DNA of 64,000 nucleotides. Origin: Escherichia phage JN02. Positions 18-56,521 of the stretch are shown here, one piece after another (positions within the stretch are counted from its first letter, which is position 1; the number at the start of each line of letters is the position of its first letter). The position numbers and the translations under genes are program-made. The notes under the pieces were generated by a model that was not told where the DNA came from, did no database searches, and worked only from the letters and a program-made list of their open reading frames with translations. The stretch lies in the sequence record MT782071.1; one strand, 5' to 3'.

Positions 18-332
18 TTATTCTTTAGGGAAGTTTTTAGAGTATGCATCATAAAGTTTATTACCAATACGGCGGAAGACTTTAGCTGCAAAACGGTTTT
101 CAGGGTTTTTAATCATGATTTGCATCATGTAAGTTCCTGCATCCGAAAGAGCTTCTTCATAGTACCCGTTAATTTCTTTAAGAGTCCTACGTTTACCACC
201 AGGACCATCAACAGTAATTTTCCATTTACCTGTAGAAGTGCGGCTCGGTGGCTCAACTTGTTCAATCCAAATATAACCACCTTCAACGCGTTGGTTGGCG
301 GATTCTGCAATAAATTCTTTATACGTTTTCAT
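18..332 (-). CDS. Internal (capsid-packaged) protein candidate, 104 aa, N-terminus MKTYKEFIAE
   Basis: ORF in track; N-terminal decapeptide matches the T4 capsid targeting sequence (MKTYQEFIAE) cleaved by gp21 after IAE; sits next to denV/e as the ip genes do in T4. Confidence 0.6.
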   Translation of the reverse strand: MKTYKEFIAESANQRVEGGYIWIEQVEPPSRTSTGKWKITVDGPGGKRRTLKEINGYYEEALSDAGTYMMQIMIKNPENRFAAKVFRRIGNKLYDAYSKNFPKE

Positions 333-1134: not shown

Positions 1135-1416
1135 CTATTTTTCTGAAGCTCCTGAAATATATTTTTCAAGACGTTGTTTCATCAGCGAGCCGTTCTTAGC
1201 GATTTCTTCCGGTTTATCGCACATACGTAACAAGGCTTCAAGCTTAGCGATATCGCTGGTACGTTCAAATTTGCGAGTATCTATCTTACTAGCAAGTTCA
1301 GAAATACGTGCTAATAGACTTTCGGCTTCAACCAAAGCTGCACCTAGCTTAGTTGCAAATGTGTCAGTAGCTTCGTTAAGAATAGATTCTGATAAAAATT
1401 CACTATATGTTTTCAT
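1135..1416 (-). CDS. Internal protein candidate, 93 aa from [10 protein letters not shown]
   Basis: ORF track 1135..1431; internal Met gives a capsid-targeting-like N-terminus; overlaps start of e by 4 nt. Confidence 0.55.
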
Positions 1417-3108: not shown

Positions 3109-3794
3109 TACCAGCCTTCCATAGGGAATTCCAGATAAACTTGAGCATTGACACGAATTTCATTGGTAATCTTTTTAACTCGGTCTGTATTACGAGATAC
3201 ACGTCCGAACCAACGCCATCCATTACTAATTGCACGAGAACCAGTGTGCCATGTTTGCCAATCAAACTGAAGAAGAGTACGGTCCGGAGCTTCCCATTTC
3301 TCTAGTTCACCTTTTTCAATTTTTTCTAGGACTTCTTTGTGCCACTGGCGATAGATAAGTTCGCCATCAGGAATCTGACTGAACTCTGCAGTTCCTGTTG
3401 CAAAATGAGTAGGACACACATCAGCGTTAACAAGACCAAGAATATGTTCAGACAAATAGCGAGGATTGTCATAATCAGGTTGTCCTGCAGTAATAAAGTG
3501 TTGACCAACTGGAATATCAGGGCGTGGTACGTCATCATGGTGATATCCAGGAATAGCAGGATACCAACCAGGCATCAGCATGTGGACTCGTGAATCAAAT
3601 ACAACCTGGTCAGTGTTCCAATCATCTGGCAAGTTCATGATGAAGCTACGAGTAATTGGGCCGCCATTATTAAAAGCAAAATTCAAATCGCAGTTAAAGA
3701 ACATAGGCTCGTTTTTAATCCGATCGTTTTTAATCGCATGAGCAAAACCACCTACTGCACGAGCTTGACTATTAAACACTTTAGAACTATTCAT
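3108..3794 (-). CDS. Hypothetical protein, 228 aa
   Basis: ORF in track, tightly packed in the minus-strand operon. Confidence 0.6.
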   Translation of the reverse strand: MNSSKVFNSQARAVGGFAHAIKNDRIKNEPMFFNCDLNFAFNNGGPITRSFIMNLPDDWNTDQVVFDSRVHMLMPGWYPAIPGYHHDDVPRPDIPVGQHFITAGQPDYDNPRYLSEHILGLVNADVCPTHFATGTAEFSQIPDGELIYRQWHKEVLEKIEKGELEKWEAPDRTLLQFDWQTWHTGSRAISNGWRWFGRVSRNTDRVKKITNEIRVNAQVYLEFPMEGW

Positions 3795-3795
3795 A

Positions 3796-4101
3796 TTATT
3801 TTCCTCGACATTCTTTAATGAAATTTTCTAGATTGGTAGATTCAATAGCTTTTTTACGAGCTTCCGCGTGTTCTTCTTCGGACAATTTACGTTTATAATT
3901 GACCCAGACATTATGGTCGAAACCAGTCGTGGCATATAATAACAATGCTCCAACGAATAGCAAAAACGGCGATAAGAATACAAAACCAGGAACACCATCC
4001 ATATCGTAAGCCTTTTGTAATACTGCAACAGAAAGGGTTGCGTAAAAAGGCGATGCAAGTATTGTTAAAAGACCGATTCGATTGGTTTCTGTTAATTTCA
4101 T
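3796..4101 (-). CDS. Hypothetical small membrane protein, 101 aa, C-terminus ...ENFIKECRGK
   Basis: ORF in track; two hydrophobic segments; shared C-terminal motif. Confidence 0.55.
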   Translation of the reverse strand: MKLTETNRIGLLTILASPFYATLSVAVLQKAYDMDGVPGFVFLSPFLLFVGALLLYATTGFDHNVWVNYKRKLSEEEHAEARKKAIESTNLENFIKECRGK

Positions 4102-11124: not shown

Positions 11125-11201
<77 letters not shown>

Positions 11202-11207
11202 AATATA

Positions 11208-11281
11208 TGACCCAGACCAGATTCGAACTGGTAACCTTTCCCTTATGAGGGGACTGCTGCTAACCATTGAGCTACAGGGCC
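11208..11281 (-). tRNA. tRNA with CAT anticodon (Met, or lysidine-modified Ile2-type)
   Basis: T-arm accag-TTCGAAT-ctggt, anticodon loop CTCATAA, acceptor with one wobble and one mismatch, D-arm imperfect; 6 nt from tRNA-Arg (dimeric precursor arrangement). Confidence 0.6.
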
Positions 11282-12531: not shown

Positions 12532-12738
12532 TTACTCACCTTTTGCAATTTTATCCATAACGATAGCGATTAAGCCGATTAGAAATGCTACTACCAATGA
12601 GATAGAATTTTCTGTTGTTGTCAGTAGTCCACAAATGAATCCTACAAACATCGAAAAACTAAAAGCCATTGAAGCAATTACTACAGCAACATTACGAATC
12701 AGTTCAGCGCGTTTCATTTTATTTCTCCATTTACTCAT
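12532..12738 (-). CDS. Hypothetical small membrane protein, 68 aa
   Basis: ORF in track; two hydrophobic helices. Confidence 0.5.
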   Translation of the reverse strand: MSKWRNKMKRAELIRNVAVVIASMAFSFSMFVGFICGLLTTTENSISLVVAFLIGLIAIVMDKIAKGE

Positions 12739-12754
12739 TTGATTTGATAGGACT

Positions 12755-12784
12755 ACTATATCATAGTCCTATCAGCATGTAAAC
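12755..12784 (-). promoter_or_regulatory. Early promoter cassette (-35 GTTTAC, -10 TATAGT) with perfect inverted repeat
   Basis: gataggact...agtcctatc around the -10. Confidence 0.55.
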
Positions 12785-12787
12785 TAC

Positions 12788-13075
12788 TTACAGAAGAGTT
12801 TTTGCAATAATTTTAAGCTGAGCTACAGAAATATGCTTAGCTTTAAACAGTGCAGTCTCTTCAGCAGGAGAGATAACAATAGTAGCGCCATCTTTCTTAG
12901 CAGACCATCCATCCCCTAAGTAAACAGTACCTTTTACTTCTTCGCCGTCAACCAGACTAATCATTGGTTTACCCTCACGTCCTTTATTTGCTTTAATAAC
13001 TTCGGAAGTAAGGGTTGCTTCGGTCAGAGTAGAAACGTTAGCATCAGGTGATATAAATTCTTTATAGGTTTTCAT
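12788..13075 (-). CDS. Internal protein I-like capsid-targeted protein, 95 aa precursor
   Basis: N-terminus MKTYKEFI...; L-T-E at residues 17-19 would give a 76-aa mature protein; position next to 57B matches ipI in T4. Confidence 0.55.
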   Translation of the reverse strand: MKTYKEFISPDANVSTLTEATLTSEVIKANKGREGKPMISLVDGEEVKGTVYLGDGWSAKKDGATIVISPAEETALFKAKHISVAQLKIIAKTLL

Positions 13076-13109
13076 TTTATTTCCTTGAGGTCGTTTATTT
13101 GATAGGATG

Positions 13110-13139
13110 ATAGTAACACGCCATCATCCTTATGTAAAC
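13110..13139 (-). promoter_or_regulatory. Early promoter cassette (-35 GTTTAC, -10 TACTAT)
   Basis: aggatgat / atcatcct inverted repeat around the -10. Confidence 0.5.
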
Positions 13140-13152
13140 TGTTTTGTGAAAA

Positions 13153-13838
<686 letters not shown>

Positions 13839-13842
13839 TTTA

Positions 13843-14577
13843 TTACCTTAAGGTTGTTTCAATTTTAGAATAAAGCTCTTCTAAAGAGCCGTCGTTTGTA
13901 ATAACTAAATCGCCTTCTTCAATAGGCAACCCAGCTTCTGTAATATGTTTATCGGTGGATTCCGTACCAGAGCGAACCACATGAATAACTGTAGCACCCA
14001 TCGCTCTAGCGGTTTCCATTTCATGGACTTGGCGTGTATCGGTTACAACATAGTAATCGAAATCACTTCCAATATAATCCATATAATTTAATGCAAAAAG
14101 TTTAACCCAATACATACGGTCAAATAAATTAACGACAACATCCGTACCGAGGGCTTGCATAAGACGGCGGATTGACCATGTGTCGTTGATATTATTTATA
14201 GCTTCACGCAGGGCTTCATATGGTTTAATATCTAGATATGAATACCCACCTTCTAATGATGATAATACTTTAACATTATTAATTGGTAAATATTGGCTTT
14301 GTAAATAAATTAGCGCTTCTTCCATTAATTCAATAACATCCAACTTATTGATATTTAATGGTGTTTCACGGTCGTATCCAACACCTTCAAAGTATTCATA
14401 TTTCAACTCAGTGAATACATCAGGGTTTTCGGCATGTCTACGTCCCCAGGCTATTGCTAGAGCGTCTTTAATCGGATATGCCAATTGGTATTTTACGGAT
14501 TTAAAGTTTGAATTGATGTAATCAGCAGTGGTGTCTTTACCACTACGTTTGATGCCGCTTAAAAAGATTAGCTCCAT
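13843..14577 (-). CDS. 1: Deoxynucleoside monophosphate kinase (gp1)
   Basis: MELIFLSGIKRSGKDTTADYI... P-loop-like motif and 244 aa match T4 gp1. Confidence 0.85.
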   Translation of the reverse strand: MELIFLSGIKRSGKDTTADYINSNFKSVKYQLAYPIKDALAIAWGRRHAENPDVFTELKYEYFEGVGYDRETPLNINKLDVIELMEEALIYLQSQYLPINNVKVLSSLEGGYSYLDIKPYEALREAINNINDTWSIRRLMQALGTDVVVNLFDRMYWVKLFALNYMDYIGSDFDYYVVTDTRQVHEMETARAMGATVIHVVRSGTESTDKHITEAGLPIEEGDLVITNDGSLEELYSKIETTLR

Positions 14578-41719: not shown

Positions 41720-42144
41720 TGTATCTTATCCCTGAATCTTATGAATTGGTACTCGAAAATGTCGAAGCACTTATTCCTGAAGCACAGGGCCGAATCGATG
41801 CATTGTCTTCTGCTCTCGATATTGACGATATAAATACTATTATCGAGAACATGCTTGAAACTGAAACGGATTTAGCTGTTGCAATGGCTTCCATTATTAA
41901 TGAAGAACAGTTAAATGAGTTTATCGTTAAACATGTTTCTTCTCGTGGTGAAGTCACCCGCACTAAAGACCGTAAAACTCGTGAACGTAACGCGTTCCAA
42001 ACAACTGGTCTTTCTAAAGCAAAACGTAGACAAATCGCTCGTAAGGTCGTTAAAGCTAAAAAAGCTAACCCTTCAGGCCAAGTTAAAGGCTTGCGTAAGC
42101 GTAAAAAAGCTCTTAAACGTCGTAAAGCATTAGGATTAAGCTAA
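41719..42144 (+). CDS. 68: Prohead core protein gp68
   Basis: 141 aa as in T4. Confidence 0.85.
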
Positions 42145-42785
42145 TGAATAAACCCGAGTTACTTATTGAAACTTGGGGTCAACCCGGTGAGATTATTGAT
42201 GGCGTTCCAATGTTGGAATCTCATGATGGAAAAGATTCTGGCTTAAAACCAGGGCTTTATATAGAAGGTATTTTTCTTCAGGCAGAGGTTGTTAACCGAA
42301 ATAAACGTTTATATCCTAAACGCGTTTTGGAAAAAGCAGTAAGTGACTATATTAAAGAACAAGTCGAAACCAAACAAGCCCTTGGAGAATTAAACCATCC
42401 ACCTCGTGCAAATGTTGACCCTATGCAAGCCGCTATCATTATTGAAGATATGTGGTGGAAAGGAAACGATGTATATGGACGTGCTAGAATTATTGAAGGC
42501 GACCATGGTCCCGGTGATAAATTAGCTGCTAATATACGAGCTGGTTGGATTCCAGGTGTTTCCTCTCGTGGTCTTGGTTCTTTAACCGACACCAATAAAG
42601 GGTACCGTATCGTGAACGAAGGATTTAAATTAACCGTCGGCGTAGATGCCGTATGGGGACCTTCTGCTCCAGATGCTTGGGTTACTCCTAAACAAATATC
42701 AGAATCAGAAAATTCGGTGGAAATCACCAAAAACAGTGCTGATGAAGCATTTAAAGCTCTCGCAGAGAGTTTAAAAGCATTATAA
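42144..42785 (+). CDS. 21: Prohead core scaffold protease gp21
   Basis: 213 aa; conserved position. Confidence 0.9.
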   Translation: MNKPELLIETWGQPGEIIDGVPMLESHDGKDSGLKPGLYIEGIFLQAEVVNRNKRLYPKRVLEKAVSDYIKEQVETKQALGELNHPPRANVDPMQAAIIIEDMWWKGNDVYGRARIIEGDHGPGDKLAANIRAGWIPGVSSRGLGSLTDTNKGYRIVNEGFKLTVGVDAVWGPSAPDAWVTPKQISESENSVEITKNSADEAFKALAESLKAL

Positions 42786-42818: not shown

Positions 42819-43631
42819 ATGATCAAAGAACAACTTTTGAAAGAAGCTCAGAATATCGAGACTTCAGTTGCTCTTAATAGTGTTTTCGAATCAGTAGAAC
42901 TGTCTCCGGACGTTAAAGCTAATTTCAGCACTGTATTCGAAGCCACCGTTAAGCAGGAAGCAGTCAAACTAGCTGAATCTCATATCAAAGCTATCGCCGA
43001 AAAAGCCGAAGAAGAAGTTGAAAAGGCTAAAGAAGATGCTGAAGAGAAAGCTGATAAAAAATTGGCTGAACAAGCTTCTAAATTCCTGGACCATCTTGCA
43101 AAAGAATGGCTCGCAGAAAACCAAATCGCAGTTGATAAAGGCATTAAAGCTGATTTGTTCGAATCCATGCTTGGTGGTCTGAAAGAACTGTTTGTTGAAC
43201 ATAACGTTGTTGTTCCAGAAGAATCTGTAGATGTTGTAGCAGAAATGGAAGAAGAGCTGGCCGAACATAAAGAAGAAACCGCTCGTTTGTTCGAAGAAGT
43301 TACCAAACGTGATGCATATATCAATTACGTTCAGCGTGAAACCGCTATTAATGAAAGCGTAAAAGACCTGACTGAATCTCAGAAAGAAAAAGTTATTGGC
43401 CTGGTTGAAGGTATGGATTATTCTGACGCATTTGGTACTAAGTTAACTGCTATTGTAGAAATGGTTAAAGGTTCTACTAAAGAAGAAGCCGCTATTACCG
43501 AAAGTATAAATACAGTTGACAATGACGCTGCCGGTCTTAATTTTGTTGCCGAAGCAGTTGACACTACCACAACTCAGGTAGAACAGAATTCTAATGTAAG
43601 TTTATATGCGAAAGTCGCATCTCGTTTCTAA
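42819..43631 (+). CDS. 22: Prohead core scaffold protein gp22
   Basis: 270 aa, highly charged helical. Confidence 0.9.
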   Translation: MIKEQLLKEAQNIETSVALNSVFESVELSPDVKANFSTVFEATVKQEAVKLAESHIKAIAEKAEEEVEKAKEDAEEKADKKLAEQASKFLDHLAKEWLAENQIAVDKGIKADLFESMLGGLKELFVEHNVVVPEESVDVVAEMEEELAEHKEETARLFEEVTKRDAYINYVQRETAINESVKDLTESQKEKVIGLVEGMDYSDAFGTKLTAIVEMVKGSTKEEAAITESINTVDNDAAGLNFVAEAVDTTTTQVEQNSNVSLYAKVASRF

Positions 43632-55352: not shown

Positions 55353-56521
55353 CAGTATTCCAACGTCCAGGATATCCTAACTTAAGCGTTAAATTATACC
55401 AAGATTATTCGGCTTGGCAAGAAAATAGATACGTTGAACTCGCAGCAACAATAACAACTTTAACCATGCGAGATTCGCTATATGGAAGAAATGAAGGGAT
55501 TCTTCAATTTTATGACACTAAAAACATCCACACTAAAATGGACGGTAGACAGATAGTCCAAATCTCTGTTTCAAATTCAAACACACCTCTCCAAGTTAGA
55601 ACTCGAATTTACGGATGTAGACATTATTCTGTGTCTGTGGACTCAAAAGGTGACAATATTATTGCAATTGAGCTTGGAACAATACATTCTATAGAGAACC
55701 TTAAATTTGGGCGACCATTCTTCTCAGACGCAGGAGAATCTATACGTGAAATGTTAGGTGTCATATATAAAGACCGTACGTTAATTACTCCGCCAATAAA
55801 CACTATTAACGCTTATGTTCCTGATATTCCTTGGACAAGCACATTTGATGATTATTTGGCATATGTCAGAGAATTAGGACTTGCTACAGCGAGTGATAAG
55901 TTCGTATTCGTATGGCAAGATATTTTAGGCGTAAACATGATTGACTATGATACTCTTATTGGTCAGGAAGGCATTAAGATGATTGTAGGCGAGCCAAATA
56001 CTGTAGGTCAGTATATTCAAGAGCTTGAGTATCCATTAGTATGGGATTTCACCTGGATGACTAAAGCTAACCAATTTACAAGAGACCCTATTAAAAACGC
56101 CACGATATTCGCTCATTCATTTTTAGATACATCTATTCCGGTTATTGTTACAGGTGATGGTGATAATGCTATTCTTGTGTCAAGATCTGGTGGATATTCC
56201 GAAATGACCTATCGTAATGGATTTGAAGAAGCAAGTCGTCTTCAGACAATGGCTCAATATGATGGATATGCTAAATGCACTACTACAGGTAATTTTAACA
56301 TAACGCCTGCTACTAAAATTATATTTGTTGACCAAAAGAACCAATTCAAATCCGAATTTTACGTCGATGAAGTTATTCATGAGTTATCAAATAATAACTC
56401 ACAAACTCATCTGTACATGTTTACCAACTCAATGGTGTTAGAACCTGTTAACCCAGTTAAGGTTAAAAATGAACTTAAATCTGATTCTACCTCTAAAGAA
56501 AATAATTCTACCACAGTCTAA
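55349..56521 (+). CDS. 27: Baseplate hub protein gp27
   Basis: 390 aa. Confidence 0.9.

Follow-up and report, generated by a model that had tools for sequence, protein, structure and literature searches.

The ORF presented above, one of those in the ORF listing of the window (the whole 64,000-nucleotide stretch of Escherichia phage JN02 DNA that was analysed, MT782071.1), is judged from its sequence to be ipI of an RB69-like Mosigvirus T-even phage and to encode a member of the IPI family proper (Table 1). The explanation as a whole, in which this ipI follows the T4 model and its product is packaged, cleaved, injected and inhibitory to GmrSD enzymes, is considered very probable. The ORF starts with ATG and comprises 95 sense codons plus a stop codon. 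The protein reads MKTYKEFISPDANVSTLTEATLTSEV...AKTLL, with MKTYKEFI at the N-terminus (complete translation, MKTYKEFISPDANVSTLTEATLTSEVIKANKGREGKPMISLVDGEEVKGTVYLGDGWSAKKDGATIVISPAEETALFKAKHISVAQLKIIAKTLL), and a Shine-Dalgarno-like AAGGA is located at 13086-13082, 6 nt 5′ of the ATG at 13075.

A sequence search of the PDB returned a sole match, chain A of 2JUB (‘Internal protein I’; E = 6e-42), with which residues 20-95 align without gaps over chain residues 1-76, with 72 of the 76 positions identical. The same residues are covered by the full length (1-76/76) of the Pfam profile PF11634 (IPI_T4), with a score of 169.6 bits versus a gathering score of 25, and Pfam describes this family as ‘Nuclease inhibitor from bacteriophage T4’. 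In PHROGs, the protein is assigned to phrog_4363, internal virion protein, with E = 5.8e-48. An IPI-type internal protein was the original prediction and these three matches bear it out, as does the alignment with T4 IPI and other T-even alleles that had been proposed as a check, in which similarity to IPI is clear throughout (88% for the precursor, 72/76 for the mature part). The family profile, a capsid targeting sequence (CTS), the in-register cleavage motif, the locus and a gp21 protease plus scaffold are all found together in this DNA. Some T-even phages have a non-homologous, alternative ip gene at the ipI locus, a candidate identity that is ruled out here as the sequence is that of IPI proper. 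Weak matches were also obtained to Pfam DUF7412 and to phrog_3155 and phrog_3966, but these are confined to the shared N-terminal CTS and carry no meaning for the mature part of the protein.

The ipI DNA was found by megablast in 117 phage records and is 99.3% identical to the annotated RB69 ipI and 99.7% identical to the sequences of several Mosigvirus isolates. With tblastn, IPI homologues were identified in 291 phage records, many of which carry the label ‘nuclease inhibitor’ or ‘internal head protein’. Proteins that are 100% identical are encoded by the Mosigvirus phages GADS24, LF82-41, LF82-7, AV110 and ECO26.1 3-1, and the T4 IPI precursor is 88.4% identical. The ipI in the window is, in this sense, an ordinary gene, already known and annotated in RB69 and in >100 close relatives. 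With only 95 codons, it might have been taken for a chance ORF, or for a pseudogene remnant within AT-rich intergenic DNA, but such a reading has next to no probability and is ruled out by the intact, full-length frame with its RBS, the end-to-end matches to the family and the structure, the 291 records and the predominance of synonymous changes. The tblastn search also returned a weak match to IPI residues 25-68 (45% identity over 44 aa, E = 9e-4) at 55914-56042 in Salicola phage SCTP-2 (MF360958.1), a halophilic jumbo phage of 440 kb that is well removed from the Tevenvirinae; this match may be due to chance.

The propeptide is closed by L17-T18-E19, encoded at 13019-13027, and followed by A20. 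Cleavage after E19 would leave 76 residues, starting ATLTSEV, and the solved T4 IPI* chain (2JUB) begins exactly at A20, the first residue past the proposed cleavage site. L-T-E is positioned as expected for the site cut by the prohead protease gp21, and by analogy with T4 we infer a CTS role for residues 1-19. Nine alleles, drawn from Mosigvirus, Tequatrovirus and Dhakavirus, were aligned, and M1, K2, T3, E6 and F7 are invariant in all three genera, as is the T18-E19-A20 junction. The elements first recognized in the ORF, namely a 95-aa precursor, a MKTYKEFI start and L-T-E at residues 17-19, are thus all present, and the predicted mature product of 76 aa, the size class of T4 IPI*, agrees with the alignment of the 2JUB chain from A20 over all 76 residues.

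Table 1. Positions, strands and supporting evidence for ipI, its parts and the related or neighbouring features in the window
Feature	Position	Strand	Evidence
CTS-type ORF, 104 aa, MKTYKEFIAE then SANQ, phrog_3966	18-332	-	
CTS-type ORF, 93 aa, SILNE then A near N-terminus, phrog_3499 internal head protein	1135-1416	-	
tRNA-Arg(TCT)	11125-11201	-	
tRNA-Met(CAT)	11208-11281	-	
tRNA.4 homologue, downstream neighbour	12532..12738	-	phrog_1692; synteny with RB69 tRNA.4 and T4 ORF2
Downstream PeSL-type cassette, 11-bp stem-loop overlapping early-type promoter	12746..12784	-	Promoter scan, folding
ipI (internal protein I precursor, 95 aa + stop)	12788..13075	-	2JUB, PF11634, phrog_4363, RB69 ipI DNA identity
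Mature IPI* (residues 20-95, 76 aa), predicted GmrSD inhibitor	12791..13018	-	2JUB, dN/dS, RB69 identity
Putative propeptide/CTS, residues 1-19 MKTYKEFISPDANVSTLTE	13019..13075	-	Alignment with T4 IPI MKTFKEFTSTTTPVSTITE
Upstream PeSL-type cassette, T4-early-type promoter overlapping 10-bp stem-loop	13104..13139	-	Promoter scan, folding
57B, upstream neighbour, 151 aa, Acb1 anti-CBASS family	13153..13608	-	Pfam PF23474 Acb1, 195 bits; RB69/T4 synteny
Prohead protease gp21, expected IPI-cutting enzyme	42144..42785	+	Pfam PF03420 Peptidase_S77, 357 bits
Scaffold core protein gp22, prohead core targeted by CTS-bearing proteins	42819..43631	+	Pfam PF25623 T4_CASP, 300 bits

T4 IPI, like the window protein, has a 95-aa precursor with the same type of CTS, and is cut before A20, the cleavage position predicted here, to give a 76-aa product; the T4 cleavage motif is I-T-E at the position occupied here by L-T-E, and the T4 gene has the same locus and the same flanking early-promoter and stem-loop signals. 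The closest well-known relative is RB69 IpI (NP_861845.1, RB69p155), which is also flanked by 57B and tRNA.4 and has an identical mature sequence of 76 aa. The single difference between the two proteins is in the propeptide, D11 in the window versus V11 in RB69, and ipI as annotated in RB69 has its start four codons 5′ of that of the ORF in the window. RB69 gp155 was again listed as an IPI homologue in a 2026 paper (PMC13326640). The Ip2, Ip3 and alternative ip alleles resemble the window IPI in having a MKTYxEF CTS and a (L/I)-x-E processing site, but, unlike the protein described here, they do not resemble IPI in the sequence of the mature part. Such alternative ip alleles of T-even phages were reportedly the subject of work by Repoila et al. 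in 1994. Internal proteins of this CTS-bearing group, Ip2 and Ip3 among them, are packaged into the virion, are injected and act as inhibitors of GmrSD variants (PMC12373910, PMC9026906).

Internal proteins of T4 are directed to the scaffold core by the CTS, which gp21 removes, and about 360 copies of IPI* are kept in the head and ejected with the DNA (PMC9026906). As gp21 and gp22 are both encoded in the window, so are the processing enzyme and the holding core of the T4 internal proteins; the portal gp20 and the major capsid protein gp23 are encoded there also. In the mechanism proposed, expression of the 95-aa precursor would start at the adjacent upstream promoter of the T4-early type, probably supplemented by read-through from others further upstream. 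The N-terminal CTS (MKTYKEF...) would bring the precursor into the prohead scaffold core, where the phage's own gp21 would cleave after L17-T18-E19, and the 76-aa IPI* would be retained in the head and ejected with the DNA. It would then bind and inhibit CT596/Eco94-type enzymes, type IV restriction endonucleases of the GmrSD family that would otherwise cut sugar-modified hmC DNA. For the window IPI, we infer this packaging, cleavage, injection and GmrSD inhibition from the T4 and RB69 literature. Co-expressed IPI* abolishes GmrSD toxicity and restriction (PMC4437046), and Ip1 specifically blocks GmrSD-CT596, with the targets of Ip2 and Ip3 not cross-protected (PMC12373910). According to the citations in one paper, RB69 is protected from GmrSD restriction by its IPI, in which four residues are not those of T4 IPI (PMC6024577). 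Alternatively, the protein could be packaged but serve mainly head structure or the neutralization of DNA charge, with no anti-restriction role here, in line with the historical view of internal proteins as basic, DNA-associated head proteins and with the effect of IPIII on head assembly (PMC9026906). This is, however, very unlikely given that T4 grows without IPI on standard hosts and requires it specifically on hosts with GmrSD (PMC9026906, PMC4437046), and that the 95% identity to a characterized inhibitor makes a loss of activity improbable.

The original prediction also held that the protein had diverged from T4 IPI, which is correct for the propeptide but not for the mature part. Of the 11 differences between the window and T4 proteins, seven are in the 19 propeptide residues and four (V47I, V84A, Q86H and T93N, window versus T4) are in the 76 mature residues, the latter being those previously reported for RB69 IPI. 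When codons of the mature part are compared with those of T4, 26 differences are synonymous and 4 are non-synonymous, giving a dS of 0.75, a dN of 0.023 and a dN/dS of 0.03 by the Nei-Gojobori method, versus a dN/dS of 0.29 for the propeptide, a pattern that indicates strong purifying selection on the mature inhibitor. A diverged allele is ruled out, as the precursor and the mature protein are 88% and 95% identical to those of T4, respectively, and ipI, with 88% protein identity, is the best conserved relative to T4 of seven neighbourhood genes; the values for gene 1, 57A, 57B, tRNA.4, tRNA.3 and tRNA.2 are 40-84%. Mature IPI* therefore has 95% amino acid identity between Mosigvirus and Tequatrovirus, with flanking genes at 40-84%, and so is unusually well conserved despite its location at a hyperplastic locus. 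Either of two explanations fits such conservation: the GmrSD target may constrain the protein tightly, or the genera may have exchanged the cassette fairly recently.

The four mature substitutions raise the alternative that this is an IPI orthologue with a target range shifted by V47, V84, Q86 and T93, together with arabinosyl-hmC, to a subset of GmrSD enzymes other than that inhibited by T4 IPI*. RB69 DNA carries arabinosyl-hmC (PMC6024577), whereas T4 DNA contains glucosyl-hmC, and from the RB69 literature the arabinosyl form would be expected in the lineage of the window phage (PMC6024577). Because RB69-type DNA carries arabinosyl-hmC and not glucosyl-hmC, the host enzymes relevant to these phages may differ from those studied with T4. 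Each internal protein acts strictly on its cognate GmrSD variants (PMC12373910), and the GmrSD of UTI89 restricts RB69 but not T4, an observation for which the authors left undecided whether the four IPI residues or arabinosyl-hmC are responsible (PMC6024577). The substitutions are, however, conservative; V47, V84 and Q86 are found also in the Tequatrovirus alleles of PhiZZ30, UFV10 and F1, so that among the nine alleles sampled T93 alone sets the Mosigvirus allele apart. The dN/dS of the mature part points to a conserved function and not to adaptive change, and the protection reported for RB69 IPI (as cited in PMC6024577) also speaks against a shifted range. A change in target range appears unlikely on balance, and it is similarly doubtful that the Mosigvirus IPI* allele, in an arabinosyl-hmC phage, would have a GmrSD spectrum unlike that of T4 IPI*. 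If it did, the sensitivity of RB69, but not of T4, to the UTI89 enzyme could, for example, be explained in this way, and the specificity of the inhibitor would depend on a small number of surface residues. The effect of four residues of this allele on GmrSD specificity is a question already in print for RB69 (PMC6024577). The gene ipI is a textbook phage counter-defence factor, with a solved structure for the T4 allele, and apart from correct annotation its identification is of little consequence.

The gene order 57B, ipI, tRNA.4 is common to the window, RB69, T4 (X03016) and SA79RD, consistent with the assignment of the gene, from the outset, to the T4 ipI position beside 57B. The 3.3-kb neighbourhood of ipI is 96-98% identical to Mosigvirus genomes, and the arrangement annotated in Mosigvirus SA79RD is the same: 57B, early promoter/terminator, IpI, terminator, tRNA.4. 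Past 57B, synteny with RB69 and T4 continues through 57A, gene 1, gene 3 and gene 2. Two counter-defence genes, ipI and 57B/Acb1, are thus adjacent; in public records, 57B is labelled variously as ‘RNA ligase’ or ‘hypothetical protein’. Downstream, the tRNA.4 ORF as listed has 68 aa, with a second ATG at 12717 that is preceded by GGAGAAATAAA. This second ATG is probably the true tRNA.4 start, because the phrog_1692 profile begins at residue 8 and the T4 and RB69 homologues have 61 aa. The two tRNA genes identified, for tRNA-Arg(TCT) and tRNA-Met(CAT), are the pair present in RB69, far fewer than in the eight-tRNA cluster of T4.

On both sides, ipI is flanked by sequences with the layout of PeSL (promoter-early stem-loop) cassettes, which are known from T4-like phages and have a proposed role in gene shuffling (PMC2839356, PMC4122927). 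The upstream early-type promoter identified by scanning has GTTTACA and TACTAT separated by 17 nt, with 9/12 matches, and overlaps a hairpin at 13104-13130 with a predicted energy of -13.2 kcal/mol (z = -4.5). Downstream, GTTTACA and TATAGT are also separated by 17 nt (10/12 matches) in an early-type promoter that would serve the next gene, and the hairpin at 12746-12773 (-18.0 kcal/mol, z = -3.9) is a potential ipI terminator. The flanks can be aligned to one another and to both flanks in T4, the upstream cassette with PE2 and its stem-loop and the downstream cassette with PE1 and the ‘pot. IpI terminator’ annotated in X03016, and a promoter and a terminator are annotated in SA79RD at the place of the upstream cassette. 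Features shared with PeSL cassettes are a stable stem-loop overlapped by a sigma-70-like early promoter, the repetition of this pair at either end of a non-essential gene within a hyperplastic region, and a gene at this junction that is present in some relatives and absent from others. In contrast to the PeSL cassettes of RB49 and phi1, the stems in the window are not of the GGGG...CCCC type. A strict scan for intrinsic terminators found none at the ipI flanks, although clear hairpins exist, because these hairpins lack the T-run that the scan required. There is no T4 late promoter sequence, TATAAATA, between 57B and ipI. The nearest on the same strand is inside gene 1, at 14193-14200, where a late promoter is annotated in SA79RD.

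The gene that varies at this junction is RB69p156, an extra RB69 gene located between 57B and ipI (3628-3954 in the RB69 record) that encodes a CTS-bearing internal head protein of 108 aa (MKTYQEFIAE..., phrog_2667). It is absent from the corresponding interval of the window (13076-13152) and from most close Mosigvirus relatives. In RB69, the shared upstream cassette precedes RB69p156, whereas in the window it directly precedes ipI. The RB69p156 junction falls within the promoter/stem-loop cassette common to both phages and the conserved ATGAAAACCTAT start, suggesting a cassette-mediated gain or loss of the gene. Elsewhere in the window, the two additional ORFs with CTS-type N-termini, at 18-332 and 1135-1416, probably encode further injected internal proteins and so are candidate inhibitors of other GmrSD variants.
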